DNA of 63,054 nt, filler included, from 11 parts of 11 records of this genome joined end to end with filler, not necessarily neighbours in it; one strand, 5' to 3'; positions 3,572 to 16,447 are shown, counted from the whole stretch's first letter. Numbers and translations: made by a program. The notes: a model not told the origin generated them from the letters alone.

Positions 3572-5650
3572 ATGGCTCGTTCGACGCCCCTTGATCGTTA
3601 TCGGAACATCGGCATCATGGCTCACATTGATGCCGGCAAGACGACGACGACTGAACGCATCCTTTATTACACCGGTCGCTCCTACAAGATCGGTGAAGTC
3701 CATGACGGCAACGCCGTCATGGACTGGATGGAGCAGGAACAGGAGCGCGGCATTACGATTACGTCGGCCGCCACGACCTGTTCGTGGAAAGACCACCGTA
3801 TCAACATTATCGATACGCCCGGTCACGTTGACTTTACGATCGAAGTTGAACGGTCCCTCCGAGTTCTGGATGGGGCCGTTGCCGTATTCGACAGCGTCGC
3901 CGGCGTCGAGCCGCAATCGGAAACGGTATGGCGTCAGGCCGACCGCTACGAAGTGCCGCGCATCTGCTTCATCAACAAGATGGACCGCACCGGCGCCGAT
4001 TTTTACCGCTGCGTCGATATGATCAGGGATCGCCTGGGTGCCCAGGCAATGGTCGTGCAGATCCCGATCGGGTCGGAAGCCGAATTCGTCGGCGCCGTCG
4101 ATCTGATCGACATGAAGGCGATCATCTGGAAGGAAGAAACCCTCGGCGCCGAATTCACCGTCTCCGACATTCCGGCCGAATTGGCCGATCAGGCGGCCGA
4201 ATGGCGCGAGAAAATGATCGAACTGGCGGTCGAGCAGGACGATGAGGCCATGGAGGCCTACATCGAAGGCACCGAGCCGGACGTCGCAACGATCAAGAAA
4301 TGTATCCGCGCCGGAACCGTTTCCGGCGCCTTCGTGCCGGTTCTGTGCGGCACCGCCTTCAAGAACAAGGGCGTTCAACCGCTGCTTGATGCGGTCGTCG
4401 ATTTCCTGCCGGCGCCGACCGACGTCGGCGTCATCAAGGGCGTCAAGGCCGGCACCGACGAGGTTGTCGAGCGCAAATATTCCGACGACGAACCGTTTGC
4501 CGCGCTTGCCTTCAAGGTGATGAACGATCCCTTCGTCGGGTCGCTTACCTTCGTGCGGATCTATTCGGGCGTTCTGACGTCGGGCCAGCAGGTCCGCAAT
4601 ACGACCAAGGACGCGCGCGAACGCATCGGCCGCATGCTCTTGATGCATTCCAATTCGCGTGAAGACGTCAACGAGGCCCGCGCCGGCGACATTCTCGCCC
4701 TGGCCGGCCTGAAAAGCACGACGACCGGCGACACCCTGTCGGATACGAACAAGCCGGTCGTGCTCGAACAGATGGATTTCCCGGATCCGGTCATCGAAAT
4801 TGCCGTCGAGCCGAAATCGAAGGCGGACCAGGAGCGCATGGGCCAGGCCCTGTCGCGGCTTGCCGCCGAGGATCCGTCCTTCCGGGTCGCATCCGATTCC
4901 GAAAGCGGCCAGACGGTGATCAAGGGGATGGGCGAGCTTCACCTCGAAATCCTCGTCGATCGCATGAAGCGGGAATTCAAGGTCGAGGCAAATATCGGAA
5001 CACCGCAGGTGGCCTATCGCGAGACCATCACCCGCGAAAGCGATATCGACTATACCCACAAGAAGCAGACCGGCGGTTCCGGGCAGTTTGCGCGCGTCAA
5101 GTTCCGGTTCGAGCCGCTGCCGTCGGGATCGGGCTTCGAGTTCGAGAATGCCGTCGTCGGCGGGTCGGTTCCGCGCGAATATATCGCCGGTGTAGAGAAG
5201 GGCCTGAAGGCGGCTTCGGAAACCGGCGTTCTGTGCGGTTTCCCGATGACCGATTTCAAGGCCGTGCTGTATGACGGCGGCTCCCACGACGTCGATTCCA
5301 GCGTCATGGCGTTCGAAATCGCGACCCGCGCCGCGTTCCGCGAGGGTGTGACGAAATCGAAGCCGGTCCTGCTGGAACCGGTGATGCGGGTCGAAGTGGT
5401 GACGCCCGAGGAATACATGGGCGACATCATCGGCGATTTGAGCTCGCGCCGCGGCAACGTTTCGGGGATGGATCAGCGGGCCAACGCCCGTGTCATCACC
5501 GCGGAGGTGCCGCTGGCCAACATGTTCGGGTATGTCAGCACCCTGCGCTCGATGAGCCAGGGGCGGGCCCAGTTCACGATGCATTTTGATCATTATTCAG
5601 AGGTTCCCCAGCAAGTGTCCGAGGAAGTCAGGACACGGCTGGCTGGATAA
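3572..5650 (+). CDS. fusA: elongation factor G
   Basis: [19 protein letters not shown] and NKMD motifs; 692 aa. Confidence 0.99.
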
Positions 5651-5683
5651 CCGGGGATTCGGCGAGAACGGAGAAAAATAGCC

Positions 5684-5709
5684 ATGGCGAAGCAGAAATT
5701 TGAACGTAC
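5684..5709 (+). CDS. tuf: elongation factor Tu, N-terminal fragment
   Basis: ATG GCG AAG CAG AAA TTT GAA CGT AC = MAKQKFER(T), directly after fusA with a GGAG RBS. Contig breaks here. Confidence 0.9.
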
Positions 5710-5809
5710 NNNNNNNNNNNNNNNNNNNNNNNNNNNNNNNNNNNNNNNNNNNNTTAATTAATTAANNNNNNNNNNNNNNNNNNNNNNNNNNNNNNNNNNN
5801 NNNNNNNNN
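5710..5809. other. artificial contig spacer
   Basis: 44 N + TTAATTAATTAA (stops in all six frames) + 44 N. Confidence 0.99.
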
Positions 5810-5813
5810 GACA

Positions 5814-6196
5814 AAGGCCCAAGTACGCAGCGAGGAACCAGCATGCATTCGTCGGGAGAGGGCTGGCAGGAATTACATCTGGGGCACGGACGCACCCAGA
5901 CCACCGGCTCTCTCAGCCCCTTCCGGCCAACGCACTGCTGCTGGACCAGCGACAACCACTATGTGGTCCCTCAGCGAGAAGATCCCAACGCTGAAGCTCG
6001 CGACGTGCAGTTGTTCGGGTTCCGAAAGGCTTGCCTATCGATGACAGTGATGCAGCTAAGTCTTTCGCCTGCAGATGTGCATGAGCTTCCCGCGCCGATG
6101 TTCCGACGGACTTCTCGGACCACAAGCTGAGAACTATTCCTAAGACGGCGAAGAATCGCCCAAGGCCTCCATGTGCTACTATGCAACAGGTCGAAT
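5814..6196 (-). ncRNA. candidate structured leader RNA, copy A (unassigned family)
   Basis: Colinear conserved blocks shared with 9724-10093. Starts at the predicted +1 of promoter 6203-6231. Hairpins at equivalent positions with different sequence. Confidence 0.65.
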
Positions 6197-6202
6197 ACGA
6201 AA

Positions 6203-6231
6203 AGTTTACCATAGACAGAAGCCCCGTTCAA
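6203..6231 (-). promoter_or_regulatory. sigma70-type promoter with extended -10, copy A
   Basis: Minus strand TTGAAC, 17 nt, TAAACT, with TGn just before the -10. Same layout as 10100-10128. Confidence 0.7.
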
Positions 6232-6501
6232 GAAAAAAGCAGCCAGAAAACCATGCGGTTTCCACCGCGTCTTCGAGCCTGAGACCGCCGGGGGCGGGTC
6301 TTTTCGGACCTTTCTGGGGCCCCACGTCCCAGGGGGGGCATGGGGCGTCCCAACAGTTCTTCGGCTTCCTGGCCGCTTCGATCCAGTTCAATGCAGTTGG
6401 ACACGGCAGAAAACATGGGTTTGTCAGGGGGTGGGCAGGGAAACACCTGCGGCGGCAGTGGGTGCGGTTCGACCCGTGGGCCACGTCGAGCGGTGGGGCA
6501 G

Positions 6502-6541
6502 AGAGAAGAATGGGGCCCATACCAAGATGGTATGGGCCCCA
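6502..6541 (-). terminator. intrinsic terminator after the PA14-domain gene
   Basis: 14-bp perfect stem TGGGGCCCATACCA/TGGTATGGGCCCCA followed by TTCTTCTCT on the minus strand, about 40 nt after the stop. Confidence 0.75.
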
Positions 6542-6581
6542 GGAAACTACTGTACAACTGATGCTACGTGTTGCCCTCTCG

Positions 6582-9557
6582 TTACCAGGAGGAGACGCCG
6601 ATCAACTCCACTTCGCCGATCTGCATACTATTGGCAGAGCCCGCGTCCCGAACGGTCGGGAAGAGGACCTGATAGTACATGTAGGCGACCGTGTTATCGA
6701 ACTCAATCGGTGTCGCGTTCATGGTGAAGCGCGGCCAAGCTTCGTCGGCGGCGAAATCAACGATATCGCCGGCGGCAATCAGCTCGTACGGGCCATCGAT
6801 GCTCTCATTCGAGCCATAGACCTCGAAGGAGGCCGGATCACGCTCGACGGCATCATTGGCCGTGGTGAGCGTCAGGCCTGTAACGACAGTGGCCCCGACC
6901 GCAGGTGCGATCTGGACGCCGGTGGGCTCAGTTGCGCCCTTGAAGTGCAGGAACTTGGTACCGGTGTCATTGTCGAGACACAGATCCGGTGTTTCCGCTC
7001 CGGGCCAATCCTCATCGTTGGGAACACCCACGATGAGATCGTCCGGACTGGTGACATCGGCCATCACATTGTGGCTCATCGGCGTACCGACACTGACCGT
7101 CACATTGACCTCACCGCTACCGGCAGCCGGAGCATCCGGGGTACCGGCACCAACGGTGATCTTGGCCACGTTGGTCAGGTCAACACCGGCCAGCTCGGCC
7201 AGCGCGATGTTCCAGTTCTGCGTGGCAACGGCTTGCGTTGCAGCCGCATCGTCGGCGACAACCACGGTACTCTGGCCGGCGGCGTCTTCGATCGCCACAT
7301 ACAGACCAGCAGCATCGTTGCTGGGCATATCCACACCAATGGCTTCCACCATTATGTCACCGGTGATGTCTCCGACCATCGAGATCTCAGACATCTGAAC
7401 GACGACGGTGTTGGCCGCATCGTGACTGGTTACGGCCAGACCGACGAGCACGGGATCAACCATTTCGATCTCGACCGTGCCCTCTTCCAGCCACTCGACA
7501 CCATCAACTGAGATGTAGCCGGTGAAGGTGTTGCCCTCGCGGACCAAACGCGCGTAGTACCCAGGATCGACGTCGACGACGCCTTCCAGTGCACGGTTGC
7601 CGGCCGAGTCGGTGTCTGCTGCAGCGCGCCACTGGAATGTGGCACCGCCACCGTCGCCACCGGTGATGATCGAGTCGGCGTGGATCGAACCGGGCTCGGT
7701 GCTCTGGCGGATCATGAAGCCCGCCTTGGCCCAGGTGTTGGTGACGTTCTCAAGGCTGTCGACGCGAACGACCAGGTCAGCGTCGCCCGTGAGACTCTGG
7801 TATGCATAGCGGAACTGATCCGCGCTGCCCCAGATGTCGGCACCGGAAGCGCCCATCGTGACGACGCCGTCAACCTCGGCAAACCCGACCGGATTGCCCT
7901 GGTAGGACACCCGCAGGGTGTCGGGGGCACTGGCCGTCAGGTCTGCTCCATCCAGAGCCACCTCGAGGGTGTTGCCGGCCTCGCCGTAGACGAGGGTATC
8001 GGCAGCCACGGCGGCGAATTCGGCGGTCGTGAAGGTCCAGACATCGCCTTCCCAGACGTCGACGCCATCGTTCTCATCAACCATCCAGGTGTACGGCATG
8101 CCGTAGACCAGGTCGGCAGCGACACTGCTGCCTTCGACGGTGGCGACCAACTCGCCATTGACGGTGACGTCGCTCGAGACAGCACCGCGGCCGCCGTACC
8201 AATCCAACTCGGTGGCCGGGGCCACACCCGTGGCGCCATCGGCCGGAGCGGTCAGACGAGCCTGCGCCGGGACATAGGAGAACTGAACTTCGCTCAAACC
8301 GGCATCCGGGAACAACCCGCCCCAGTTCGTGTTGGCGGTCAGCTTGACATACTTGGCGCCTACGCCACCGAAATCGACGACCGTATTGGCCGCATACGCT
8401 TCGGCAGCAGGAGCTTGGGCAAACTCGACGTCCGTCAGGACCATCCACGTTTCGCCGTCGACGGAATACTCAACGGTGACGTCCTTGAAGCCATAGCCCA
8501 GGAAGCCTTCGAAGCCGGAGTTGGAGTTCCACACCGTCATGTCGACTACTTTGTAGACGCGGGGGAATTCGTACTGGATCGCAACGGCTTCGCCGGCGGC
8601 CGGAACGCCCAGCCACATGTCCAGCGATTCGGTGGAGTGGCCACCATCAACGAGGCCTGAACCGTCCACGGTCTGCTCTGGTCCGCCCACCGCGTCGCCG
8701 GTTGCGGCATTGCTGGTGGCGATGATACCTTCGACGAGGAACGTCTCGGGCTCGGTCGTGAAACTCCAGAGGAAGCCTTCGGCTCCATCCACATCCACGC
8801 GCCAGTAGTAGGTCGTGTCGGTGGCCAGATCCGCGCCGGCACTGCCCAAGTTGACAGAGTTTTCGACGGTGCCCTCAGCGAGCAACTCCAGAGCGGCCGG
8901 GTCGGTGCCGAGGAGCAGATCGACGATCGCACCTTCCGGGGCCGTCCAACTGATCACGCCATCAATGATGCCCATGGCGCCGTTGGCCGGGGACGGACCG
9001 CTGGCCTTGGTCGGAGCGGTGACTTCGTACTCGGCGACGAACAGCTCGCCGGGGATGACGGTGATCTCTTCGGAACCGGGGGGGGTCCAGCCCCAGTCTT
9101 GACCGTCACCGCCGCCACCTTCCTGCATGATACCGACGAACGCGAGGACCTGGCCCTCGGTCAGCATCATGGGTGCGGACTTCTGGCTTTCGTAGTTGCT
9201 CCATGCCTGGCTGGCTGTCCAACCGTCCACGCGCGCGATCTCCTCGGCGTTGACGGGGTTGTCGTCCATGCTGACATAGAGTCTCTGGTAATCGTCACCG
9301 GCGACGTAGAACGTGTACTCACCTGTTTCAGGAACGGTGAGCCAGCCCGTCATTCTGGCGGTGTAATTGTCGGCGATATCCGCCCAGGTCGGCTCCGCGA
9401 GGACATCTACCTGATCCGCGGGGACCCCGCTCTCAGCGATGGCGATGGCGTCATCGATACTTCCGCCACCGTTCCAAATCTCGCGCAGCACGTCTGCCGA
9501 CGACACCGTCGACAGCGCCATGCAAATTGTTAGCGCTAACAAAGCAAGTTTTCTCAT
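6582..9557 (-). CDS. large secreted acidic protein: PA14 domain, Ig/SusE-like modules, discoidin (F5/8 type C) and lectin-like domains
   Basis: Signal peptide MRKLALLALTICMALSTVSSA. PA14 signature NYTARMTGWLTVPETGEYTFYVAGDD. SPANGA/YYWRVD/GDVWTFTT modules typical of Sedimentisphaerales proteins. Discoidin-like YSVDGETW...AKYVKL...GLSEVQF. 991 aa from ATG 9557. Confidence 0.85.
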   Translation of the reverse strand: MRKLALLALTICMALSTVSSADVLREIWNGGGSIDDAIAIAESGVPADQVDVLAEPTWADIADNYTARMTGWLTVPETGEYTFYVAGDDYQRLYVSMDDNPVNAEEIARVDGWTASQAWSNYESQKSAPMMLTEGQVLAFVGIMQEGGGGDGQDWGWTPPGSEEITVIPGELFVAEYEVTAPTKASGPSPANGAMGIIDGVISWTAPEGAIVDLLLGTDPAALELLAEGTVENSVNLGSAGADLATDTTYYWRVDVDGAEGFLWSFTTEPETFLVEGIIATSNAATGDAVGGPEQTVDGSGLVDGGHSTESLDMWLGVPAAGEAVAIQYEFPRVYKVVDMTVWNSNSGFEGFLGYGFKDVTVEYSVDGETWMVLTDVEFAQAPAAEAYAANTVVDFGGVGAKYVKLTANTNWGGLFPDAGLSEVQFSYVPAQARLTAPADGATGVAPATELDWYGGRGAVSSDVTVNGELVATVEGSSVAADLVYGMPYTWMVDENDGVDVWEGDVWTFTTAEFAAVAADTLVYGEAGNTLEVALDGADLTASAPDTLRVSYQGNPVGFAEVDGVVTMGASGADIWGSADQFRYAYQSLTGDADLVVRVDSLENVTNTWAKAGFMIRQSTEPGSIHADSIITGGDGGGATFQWRAAADTDSAGNRALEGVVDVDPGYYARLVREGNTFTGYISVDGVEWLEEGTVEIEMVDPVLVGLAVTSHDAANTVVVQMSEISMVGDITGDIMVEAIGVDMPSNDAAGLYVAIEDAAGQSTVVVADDAAATQAVATQNWNIALAELAGVDLTNVAKITVGAGTPDAPAAGSGEVNVTVSVGTPMSHNVMADVTSPDDLIVGVPNDEDWPGAETPDLCLDNDTGTKFLHFKGATEPTGVQIAPAVGATVVTGLTLTTANDAVERDPASFEVYGSNESIDGPYELIAAGDIVDFAADEAWPRFTMNATPIEFDNTVAYMYYQVLFPTVRDAGSANSMQIGEVELIGVSSW

Positions 9558-9723
9558 GATACACCCTTTCCGATAATATTTCGGTTGCGTTCCGATTGAC
9601 CGTGCTAGCCTTACCATGCTCTAGCTGAGTGCCACCTCCTTCCTGCCGGTGCCCGTGGGGCTGACCGACATGTCGAACGGAGAACCGCGGCTCTCCGTTC
9701 GGCAGTATCCTCCCTGACCCATC

Positions 9724-10093
9724 AAGGCCCAGATGCACCGCAGACAAGCCATGCGCAGAGGATGAGGGGAAAGATGACCATCGCGGCATTCGCTGACGAC
9801 ATGCCACGGAACACCCACTCTCTCGCACCCTTTCCGTGGAGCTACTGCTTCTGGACCGACAATTTCAGTGTCATCTCTGAGTCGCTGCGTTTGCTTGCCG
9901 GGCTCATAGGAAAGCAACCACTTGCGTCGGAAGACGCCTGCCAGGGTCACAGGCAAAGTCCCTCATCCGCAAGTACTTATGAGCCGGAGGTGATCTTTTC
10001 AAGCACCTTTCTCGGGCGGCAAACTGAAACCACTCCTATGACGGCAATGATGTACCGAAAACCTCCGTGTGACGCAATGTCTACAGGTCGAAT
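9724..10093 (-). ncRNA. candidate structured leader RNA, copy B (unassigned family), in the 5' UTR of the PA14-domain gene
   Basis: Conserved blocks shared with 5814-6196. Begins ATTCGACCTGT 7 nt after the -10 box. No credible coding frame. Confidence 0.65.
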
Positions 10094-10099
10094 GTGTTT

Positions 10100-10128
10100 A
10101 GTTTAGCATAGACATGGCATCTATTCAA
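10100..10128 (-). promoter_or_regulatory. sigma70-type promoter with extended -10, copy B
   Basis: Minus strand TTGAAT, 17 nt, TAAACT, with TGn just before the -10. Confidence 0.7.
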
Positions 10129-10510
10129 GCAGGAAGCAGCCTGATTTCACGACTCGTGGCGAGTTTATTTGCCTGCCGGGGGACGGCTTCTCGGACCTGC
10201 CGACCCGTGGACTCCAGTGATGGCCGGGAAACCCCGGCATTTCCGGCCCCTTCCGGAGTCCACAGCGGCCGATGGCAGGCCCACCGGGCGTCAAGAGAGA
10301 CGCTGGAAAGGGAAGAAACGGCGGATTCGCGTCGGAGTGGCCCACGGGCGGCCGGGCAGCACCGGTCATAACAACGCTGCCGCCCGCGTGCGGTGTCTGC
10401 GGGCTATAGGGTTCCCTCGTCCCCCCGGTTTATGATATGCTGTAAAGGTCGGGTGCCGACATGCCGATTCCAGGGTTCCCGCCCAGAAGAACACGGTCAT
10501 GCCGACACCC

Positions 10511-11115
10511 CTAACGTGGAGCTTGGATGTCGATGGGCCGGGCGTAGACGCGCTGCCCATCGTCGTTGTCCATTGTGATGTTTCCGCCAATCCCGGGTAC
10601 TGCCGCATGCGCCGGGTCCGATGGTTCCTCAGGAGATGCGATTTCATCAAGCGGCGGCGCCCGCCAGATATGGGCGGTCCCCGTGGCATTGATCGCCACG
10701 AGCAGGGTGCCGTCGGGTGAGAACTGCAGATGATCTCTAATGAAGCCTTCGCCTTCCAGCGTGGCGACCTCGTGCCTGGTTGCCACGTCCCAGAGTTTGA
10801 CGGCTTCGTCTCTCTGGCTGGCGGAGGCGAGACGCTGGCCATCCGGTGAGAAGGCCACGGCGTGCACCCCGTTGAGATGGCCACGCAATTGGTCCACGAC
10901 GTTCCGTCGCGCGATATCCCACAGGGTCACGGTGCCTTCGGCCGATGCGGTCGCCAGGACCGTCCCATCCGGCGTGAACGCCATGCCCGAGATCCCCCAG
11001 CTTTCTTCGATTCCTTCCGCCGTCTCCATGTCACCTGTGCGAAGATCGACAAAGTGTACGCGTCCCTCCGATCCGCCCATGACCAGAAAACGCTCATTGG
11101 GAGAGAGAATAGGCT
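10511..11115 (-). CDS. WD40-repeat protein, C-terminal part (5' truncated)
   Basis: Repeats AFTPDGTVLATASAEGTVTLWD, GHLNGVHAVAFSPDGQRLASAS...VKLWD and FSPDGTLLV...HIW. Confidence 0.85.
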
Positions 11116-11215
11116 NNNNNNNNNNNNNNNNNNNNNNNNNNNNNNNNNNNNNNNNNNNNTTAATTAATTAANNNNNNNNNNNNNNNNNNNNNNNNNNNNN
11201 NNNNNNNNNNNNNNN
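11116..11215. other. artificial contig spacer
   Basis: N44-TTAATTAATTAA-N44. Confidence 0.99.
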
Positions 11216-16347: not shown

Positions 16348-16447
16348 NNNNNNNNNNNNNNNNNNNNNNNNNNNNNNNNNNNNNNNNNNNNTTAATTAAT
16401 TAANNNNNNNNNNNNNNNNNNNNNNNNNNNNNNNNNNNNNNNNNNNN
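16348..16447. other. artificial contig spacer
   Basis: N44-TTAATTAATTAA-N44. Confidence 0.99.

Follow-up and report, generated by a model that had tools for sequence, protein, structure and literature searches.

A long conserved leader with an orphan Shine-Dalgarno box precedes secreted PA14 genes in Phycisphaerae-type bacteria and may stabilize their messages

A 63-kb window of DNA (the whole stretch analyzed here) from a Phycisphaerae/Sedimentisphaerales-type genome carries, on its minus strand, two copies of a long leader that is found in front of genes for secreted proteins with a PA14 domain. The genome type follows the record titles of relatives and agrees with the Phycisphaerae-like origin proposed in an earlier, sequence-only reading of this DNA. 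The copies are homologous to leaders in related genomes. They encode no protein, are under purifying selection, accompany a single gene family, covary locally and include a box complementary to the 3′ end of 16S rRNA. We have high confidence that the element is a selected, non-coding, cis-located leader. In our best reading it would be the 5′ untranslated region (UTR) carried by the messages of two paralogous genes that lie in tandem and encode secreted, lectin-like PA14 proteins. It may act in cis to set mRNA lifetime and/or translation, as a ribosome-docking stabilizer or standby site resembling a stabilizing Shine-Dalgarno (STAB-SD) sequence; this is the explanation that we tentatively prefer. 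It does not represent a new class of large structured RNA.

The earlier reading had reported two diverged copies. The stretches 6231 to 5810 (copy A) and 10128 to 9724 (copy B) align colinearly, with all of its listed blocks visible. The first 107 nt are 72% identical between A and B (blastn, E 6.6e-9). A hidden Markov model (HMM) of the pair matches relatives down to E 1e-57, and to 1e-66 after iteration; thus, the likeness of the copies is due to homology and not to chance. No third copy was found in the window with this HMM. The promoter said to be shared by the copies (TTGAAY-N17-TAAACT with TG, and ATTCGACCTG at a set distance past the -10 box) can be read in both, with a 17-nt spacer ending in TG-N and ATTCGACCTG 6 nt after the -10. 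Promoter B (10100-10128) consists of the -35 element TTGAAT (10123-10128), the 17-nt spacer with TG and the -10 element TAAACT (10100-10105); promoter A (6203-6231) has TTGAAC (6226-6231) and TAAACT (6203-6208). A simple promoter scan of the window flagged neither. They are predicted because the pattern TTG...G.TA...T (positions T1, T2, G3, G22, T24, A25 and T29) is invariant across 18 copies; the spacer is variable. We infer that a strong, sigma-70-type promoter starts the transcript at the invariant AUUCGACCUG, with its A at 10093 (copy B) and 6196 (copy A).

Leader B is longer than the 370 nt first assigned to it, as conservation does not stop at 9724 and continues for ~165 nt, to the ATG at 9557. 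It comprises ~536 nt of non-coding sequence from the predicted +1 to the base before the ATG (9558-10093, minus strand) and is conserved along its full length in 11 orthologous leaders. Leader A (5810-6196, minus strand) is cut at a contig end before the domain with hairpins P2-P4 and the orphan Shine-Dalgarno (SD) box described below. The 383 nt previously given for copy A are therefore an artefact of the assembly joint at 5810. Across the family, leaders measure about 350 to 600 bases.

As proposed earlier, leader B leads into a gene for a 991-aa secreted protein (6582-9557, minus strand) that has its own terminator. Pfam identifies PA14/GLEYA and F5/8 type C (F5_F8_type_C) domains behind the signal peptide; there was no NCBIfam model match for this protein. 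The true ribosome-binding site (RBS), GGAAAGGG at 9564-9571, and the ATG at 9555-9557 together span 9555-9571 on the minus strand. A hairpin scan placed a terminator-like 14-bp hairpin 3′ of the gene (6541-6511, minus strand).

A homolog search with the PA14 protein retrieved 19 loci from metagenome-assembled genomes (MAGs) of Sedimentisphaerales/Phycisphaerae, and iterated nhmmer located the leader 5′ of the PA14 ortholog in 10 of these. In six loci a second leader follows the PA14 gene and precedes a gene for a 639-663-aa protein with PA14, Ig and LamG domains. A BLAST search of one leader against five genomes was too insensitive and missed downstream copies. Wider searches used two models: R1 covers the promoter and first ~100 nt and is sequence-only, because RNAalifold gave no consensus base pair in the 5′ 135 nt; R2 is a structure model of the 3′ domain. 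R1 matched all 13 genomes of one genus, with one to three copies each, 5/151 genomes sampled from the order and 6/151 sampled from the family. In the 13 genomes R2 matched the same leaders as R1, and otherwise gave two weak extras (E 0.004 and 0.009). The 3′ domain was also considered as a free module elsewhere in these 13 genomes; this was rejected, as the convincing R2 matches were those leaders only. In total there are 29 unique genome copies. When metagenome contigs were scanned with a pattern, 29 loci matched. True leaders were present in 14 of these (19 instances); the other 15 contained no leader and were dropped as chance matches. A plasmid search gave no match.

Tabulation of the downstream genes, which the sequence-only reading had suggested, returned one paralogous secreted PA14 family throughout. 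Every instance with downstream sequence (28/28 from genomes and 17/17 from metagenomes, two more metagenome instances being cut by contig ends) directly precedes a PA14 gene of this family, whose product begins with a signal peptide followed by V/L-x-R-E-I-W. The proteins of the two tandem genes have the signal peptide in common and are 53% identical over ~290 N-terminal residues, and the leader was thus duplicated together with the 5′ end of the gene. The suggestion of a free module reused in front of genes does not fit this pattern, since the leader always accompanies one paralogous family and was copied along with the gene start.

Some members of the family differ in arrangement or length. 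Three tandem leader-gene units with ~3.7-kb spacing occur on one contig (G267:C25 104677, 108458 and 112066; L043, L051 and L049), and the leader of the third unit (L049) is missing most of the P2-P3 region. The downstream leaders of L004 and L005 (6195-6570 in each) are ~340 nt long, having kept the 5′ ~150 nt and the P2-P4/box domain without the central ~200 nt. The retention of both ends in these two leaders indicates that the ends are the essential parts. Full-length PA14 paralogs in L013 (2366-2995) and L010 (the same MAG as L007) have a different leader of ~600 nt with promoter TTGACT-N17-TATAAT, and only the GCAGGAAGGAGGTGG box is common to these and the leader studied here.

Selection on the leader is evident from comparison with the adjacent genes. 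In 15 of 16 pairs examined, leader identity exceeds identity at 4-fold sites of the neighboring gene. For the window and L005 the values are 66% for the leader, 44% for 4-fold sites and 68% for the protein; for L033 and L035 they are 81%, 44% and 53%; for L005 and L033 they are 66% (over 516 nt), 46% and 40%. Overall, orthologous leaders are 66-82% identical over at least 473 aligned nt and the 4-fold sites are 44-73% identical, values that the alignment method inflates (the 200 nt 5′ of the promoter also reach ~70%, over fewer aligned bases), so that the HMM E-values are the firmer evidence.

The earlier statement that no protein frame is shared between copies was upheld. Variable sites are spread evenly over the three codon positions (111/122/117, with no window below p 0.69), and leader indels are mostly not multiples of three. 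Four of the 29 leaders have no open reading frame (ORF) of at least 60 codons on either strand, none of the listed ORFs is common to all, and the ORFs of leader B gave no Pfam match. The absent 3-periodicity and lack of a conserved frame rule out a protein-coding gene or leader peptide. In many leaders there is an in-frame ATG 27 nt 5′ of the start (window 9558-9584; e.g., L005 2974-3000) that would give MSFVRGG...MKK. This is probably conservation of RNA sequence and not an N-terminal extension, because several copies have stops in between.

Neither the window nor five related loci had an Rfam 15 match at gathering score, in agreement with the earlier reading, which had not recognized the element as a riboswitch, T-box, intron, tmRNA or RNase P; at E<=10, the region 5500-10500 gave only a chance Ysr224 match inside a coding sequence. 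The proposal of a large structured RNA is weakly supported. Complete leaders fold with unremarkable energy (z -0.98 for B and +0.58 for L005), and covariation could be shown only for three hairpins in the last ~150 nt before the RBS region. For this stretch, RNAalifold proposes a closing helix P1 and hairpins P2, P3 and P4. Fold and family comparison place all three hairpins on the minus strand of the window. P2 (9707-9718) is a 3-bp hairpin, GUC[AGGGAG]GAU, with an A-N-GGA-N hexaloop that makes it a candidate CsrA-type site. P3 (9674-9701) is a 12-bp hairpin, CGAACGGAGAGC-CGCG-GUUCUCCGUUCG. P4 (9651-9661) is a short G+C hairpin, GCCC-CAC-GGGC, with 7 bp in most relatives.

Covariation analysis of this domain showed compensatory changes in P2-P4, and one-sided changes in P1. 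In a MAFFT alignment of 27 sequences, 82% of cells pair, versus at most 54% with partners slid by 1-3 columns, and the covariation score of 0.276 (at most 0.130 when slid) was reached by 0/500 shuffles. For 35 distinct sequences aligned on R2, 81.3% of cells pair versus at most 53.4%, the covariation score is 0.297 versus at most 0.132, and double changes occur in 18/30 pairs (reached by 2/500 shuffles) and 84 cells (0/500). P3 contributes most of the signal, with double changes in 10/13 pairs. P4 is mostly invariant G-C, and 5/7 of its pairs show a double change, in few cells each. We also looked for stacked compatible columns over the full alignment, but set the outcome aside because G-rich blocks, matching wherever G-U was permitted, dominated it.

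After P4 comes the orphan SD box, GGCAGGAAGGAGGUGG (9632-9647, minus strand), identified from family comparison and the 16S rRNA tail. It is 82 nt from the ATG and is not followed by a start codon of its own. Across leaders the box has the form GGAAGGAGGUGG and lies 82-106 nt 5′ of the ATG. Of 35 distinct leaders, all 35 have GGAGGU, 30 have AAGGAGGUG and 25 have the complete 12-mer. In a congener (L086) the 16S rRNA ends in ...GGAUCACCUCCUUUCU, and by eye (A)GGAAGGAGGUGG pairs with 12-13 consecutive nucleotides of this tail, two of them as G-U. The outgroup form, GGAAAGGAGGUGG, pairs just as fully (also by eye). No ORF in the window starts 3-13 nt 3′ of the box, which is the sole one of three AAGGAGGU occurrences in the window without a nearby start. 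An upstream ORF initiated from the orphan SD was considered and rejected: the AUC found 5 nt on is replaced by ACU, GUC, ACC or GCC in 7/35 distinct copies, and the frames are not conserved.

The box also occurs away from PA14 leaders. The 12-mer was found 1, 5 and 7 times in three genomes (reversed control, 0-2); of the other 12-mer sites, one is an ordinary SD and one lies 96 nt before a small ORF for a non-secreted protein. The 14-mer CAGGAAGGAGGTGG occurs 22 times in 12 of the 13 congeneric genomes (reversed control, 0). Nine of these sites are in PA14 leaders, and 13 lie 117-189 nt before genes for signal-peptide proteins. Ten are 161-189 nt before an orthologous signal-peptide protein with the N-terminus MC[KR]RL...DPDIIGWWWFDEGGG. 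The three sites in G269 precede other secreted-protein genes, one being a PA14 paralog with an otherwise different leader. These 13 loci (L145 on G002:C25, L129, L132, L137-L141, L144 and L146, also L133, L143 and L150) are distributed over 11/13 genomes. In the largest group among them UUUCCUU precedes the box and could pair with its first half. A broader possibility, to which we give rather little credence, is that the leader belongs to a lineage-specific post-transcriptional regulon. In this Sedimentisphaerales genus, secreted lectin-like genes with long leaders would have in common an orphan box of 14 nt, CAGGAAGGAGGUGG, which can pair with the extreme 3′ end of 16S rRNA and which in PA14 leaders is coupled to the CsrA-type hairpin. 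The box would serve as a regulated 30S docking or standby platform, or as a CsrA sponge, in a bacterium that lacks FliW and RNase J.

In the explanation that we tentatively prefer, a 30S subunit would dock on the orphan SD box. Together with the adjacent hairpins, the docked subunit could shield the downstream message from 5′-end-dependent attack by RNase E, and/or it could be a standby site that feeds the true start 82-106 nt further on. The outcome would be high, long-lived expression. Gating by a CsrA-type protein, via the GGA hairpin P2 and the CAGGAAG of the box, would be a compatible addition. STAB-SD of cry3Aa was reportedly described by Agaisse and Lereclus in 1996. In STAB-SD hosts RNase J degrades mRNA in the 5′ to 3′ direction and is blocked by the bound 30S subunit. 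We searched for host factors with profiles in five congeneric or related genomes (G001-G004 and G263; L053-L057), the window's own genome being outside this set. RNase E/G was above the family cut-off in 5/5 of these genomes, and RNase J (TIGR00649 above cut-off) was found in 0/5. Thus, the classical STAB-SD mechanism cannot apply as such here, and RNase E would be the enzyme to be warded off. Scanning by RNase E proceeds from the 5′ end, and obstacles bound to the RNA hinder it (PMC9943677); hbs is a case of a 30S block to RNase J (PMC5737220).

Several observations weigh against this stabilizer or standby reading. The transcription start, processing, expression, binding of 30S or CsrA, and any effect on stability or translation are all predictions drawn from sequence; a search of sequencing runs matched the whole stretch in one DNA run, which may be its source, and a 0.06 share of it in a second, and listed no RNA run. 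A stabilizer leaves the invariant 5′ block AUUCGACCUG and the conserved first ~300 nt unaccounted for. The lack of RNase J in the five genomes removes the nuclease of the known mechanism. The box contains CAGGAAG, a CsrB-type CsrA element, so that the binder could be CsrA and not the ribosome. On the structural side, folding energy is no better than that of shuffled sequence, and the closing helix P1, with ~80% of cells paired, changes on one side only. The covariation comes from close relatives, and much of it reflects the split between upstream and downstream paralogs, implying few independent events. The 35-sequence alignment was fitted to R2 and leans towards the model, although the unfitted MAFFT alignment gives the same picture. 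A pairing of the 5′ block with GCAGGAAGGA, proposed by RNAalifold, was discarded because outgroup copies alter the partner without compensation.

Control by CsrA alone is the main rival, albeit one we consider improbable. A CsrA dimer would bind P2 (C-ANGGAN-G) as well as other GGA sites, namely CAGGAAG in the box and the SD that is actually used, and would repress or activate translation of these abundant messages. Alternatively, the GGA-rich leaders would titrate CsrA in a lineage without FliW. P2 has the form of a CsrA target, a short hairpin closed by C-G with GGA in a six-nucleotide loop. The loop reads A-N-G-G-A-N in 29 of the 35 distinct leaders and includes GGA in 34; the closing pair is C-G in 33, and the next stem pair covaries (CG:16, UA:14, UG:4). 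FliW is the usual partner of CsrA outside Gammaproteobacteria. No FliW scored above the family cut-off in the five genomes, so that another partner or target set would be needed. All five encode csrA (PF02599 above cut-off), with three copies in G001 and two in G263, yet CsrA is so widespread that its presence tests little. According to PMC7652899, high-affinity CsrA sites have GGA in a six-nucleotide loop on a stem of at most 4 bp, the SELEX consensus is RUACARGGAUGU and the CsrB repeat is CAGGA(U/A/C)G, all of which P2 and the box resemble. GGA occurs 9-20 times per leader, a slight excess over dinucleotide shuffles (mean z 1.2; 27/28 positive), with CCUCC present only 0-1 times. The excess is a weak one, and because the leaders are related, the 28 values cannot be taken as independent. 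CsrA would need only GGA, yet GGAGGU(G) is invariant in 35/35 leaders, a better fit to pairing with 16S rRNA. In addition, the gap of ~75-90 nt between P2 and the box is beyond the usual distance for bridging by a single dimer unless P1 forms, and P1 is without covariation.

Part of the conservation might instead be at the level of DNA, with ATTCGACCTG as an operator or a signal in the initially transcribed region (a repressor site, a promoter-proximal pause or loading of an elongation factor). We rate this as less probable still. The block (10084-10093, minus strand, from comparison of copies) is at a fixed distance from the -10 in all 29 copies, and the spacer and flanks vary. It is the most invariant block, exact in 22/29 unique genome copies and with 1-3 changes in the others, and no conserved RNA pairing partner was found for it. 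Over the first 75 nt there is no unusual degree of structure (mean z -0.08 for 29 copies, versus mononucleotide shuffles), and folding predicts that in most copies the very first nucleotides stay single-stranded. However, by eye there is no dyad symmetry in the block, and a fixed position is equally expected of a motif that forms the RNA 5′ end. A signal in the DNA would also leave ~500 nt of conserved downstream sequence, and the compensatory changes, unexplained.

An RNA that senses a ligand or other signal (riboswitch-like, a thermosensor or an antitermination element), in which the P1-P4 junction would be an aptamer that controls the orphan SD or RBS, seems unlikely. It would suit a junction of several stems that covary and are linked by conserved joining regions, directly 5′ of an SD-like sequence and, given the lack of an Rfam match, it would be new. 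However, a terminator scan found no intrinsic terminator within 9558-10093 or 5810-6196 on the minus strand, which argues against a riboswitch or attenuator of the terminator type. Further, no conserved alternative pairing to the true SD was seen (by eye, GUCCUC/GAGGAC fails in the outgroup and several paralogs), and the one-sided changes in P1 leave the closing helix unsupported. The downstream genes encode secreted lectin-like proteins and not transport or metabolic functions, the range is one genus and few relatives, and folding energy is ordinary.

In a tree of the first 400 nt of the leaders (FastTree; support values were not inspected), copy A (5810-6231) pairs with the second copy of L107 (4109-4708), and this pair is sister to the clade of B, L008 and the first copy of L107, apart from the downstream leaders of other genomes. 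This suggests gene conversion or re-duplication between the tandem leaders in the lineage of the window. Such recent copying, and the constant duplication of leaders with the gene 5′ end, would be expected of a neutral remnant of tandem duplication without a function of its own, yet that explanation is very hard to sustain in view of the invariant blocks, the compensatory changes and leaders that exceed 4-fold sites in identity and are alignable where proteins are only 40% identical.

The window as a whole is composed of ~11 contigs of 5-7 kb joined by ten N44-TTAATTAATTAA-N44 linkers of non-biological sequence (5710-5809, to which no strand applies, 11116-11215, 16348-16447 and seven more). 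Genes on either side of a linker are not genome neighbors. Both leader copies are on the contig at 5810-11115, whose end cuts copy A short. An EF-G gene on the far side of the joint at 5810 is from a different contig and is unrelated to leader A. The earlier view that A starts the next transcription unit is therefore not visible in the window, and finds its counterpart in relatives only, where a gene for a 638-663-aa PA14+Ig+LamG protein follows. Our best guess for the gene after copy A comes from L107, which of the metagenome relatives is nearest to the window: its second leader is followed by a gene for a PA14+Ig+LamG protein of 638 aa. Located 5′ of promoter B (10511-11080, minus strand) is a beta-propeller gene of the WD40/PD40 type, of which the contig end leaves only the 3′ portion. 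In this position relatives have a 526-633-aa PD40-repeat ORF preceded by a DUF6057 gene.

To our knowledge, almost nothing is known of post-transcriptional control in Planctomycetota, and the organisms are uncultured. A leader conserved beyond silent sites, and in some pairs beyond the protein, together with a recurring box, makes lineage-wide boosting or gating of secretome expression a testable idea. If the stabilizer reading is true, the STAB-SD idea, so far tied to hosts with RNase J, would apply to a host with RNase E as well. A true CsrA reading would provide a CsrA target set in a phylum where none is known. The regulon, if it exists, would be a control of secretome expression not described before in Planctomycetota. 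In the open literature on structured RNAs of Planctomycetes and on STAB-SD, supplementary motif lists being outside the scope, we found nothing that describes the element, and a search on 5′ UTR stabilizers of envelope or surface-layer mRNAs turned up no relevant open paper.

Like the large RNAs OLE, GOLLD, HEARO, ROOL and raiA, all of which are in Rfam, the leader is 350-600 nt long, alternates conserved blocks with variable stretches and comes from uncultured lineages. Unlike these, it is absent from Rfam and is no free-standing gene, being a leader joined to a single gene family; its range is narrow, its folding energy is ordinary, and only three of its hairpins show covariation. The 5′ UTR of ompA and the long leaders of S-layer genes stabilize abundant mRNAs, mainly via a 5′-terminal stem-loop. 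The leader is similar to these in its length, its local hairpins and its association with genes for secreted or surface proteins, and differs in that most copies have a 5′ terminus predicted to be single-stranded, and its conserved feature is an orphan SD.

The closest parallel to the preferred reading is STAB-SD, defined as a 5′ UTR complement of the 16S 3′ end without a start codon, and the leader box is such a sequence. Transcription of cry3Aa in Bacillus thuringiensis starts at -558, and protection of the stable transcript comes from an SD-like sequence near -125 that serves no start codon (PMC12970973). The leader has a similarly distant promoter (about -536 to -590, predicted), an unused SD ~100 nt 5′ of the start (-82 to -106) and, as in the cry3Aa case, precedes a gene for an exported or crystal protein that is, or here would be, very highly expressed. 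In contrast, the leader belongs to planctomycetes, in which RNase E/G is present and RNase J was not detected, so that the blocked nuclease would differ. The box is 12-13 nt long and follows three conserved hairpins, and its stabilizing effect is predicted.

With leaders and sponges of the CsrA/RsmA type (glgC, hag/flaA and CsrB; PMC7652899 and, for flaA, PMC4894983) the element shares a GGA hexaloop on a short, C-G-closed stem, additional GGA sites including the SD, and the CAGGAAG of the box. It differs from them in the lack of FliW, in the lack of a CsrB-type small RNA by Rfam in the loci searched, in its lectin-like targets and in sites that are far apart, and the CsrA site is a predicted one. 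Compared with these systems, what is new is a narrowly distributed, long regulatory leader that combines an orphan SD with a CsrA-type hairpin, a variant of a kind that is already known.

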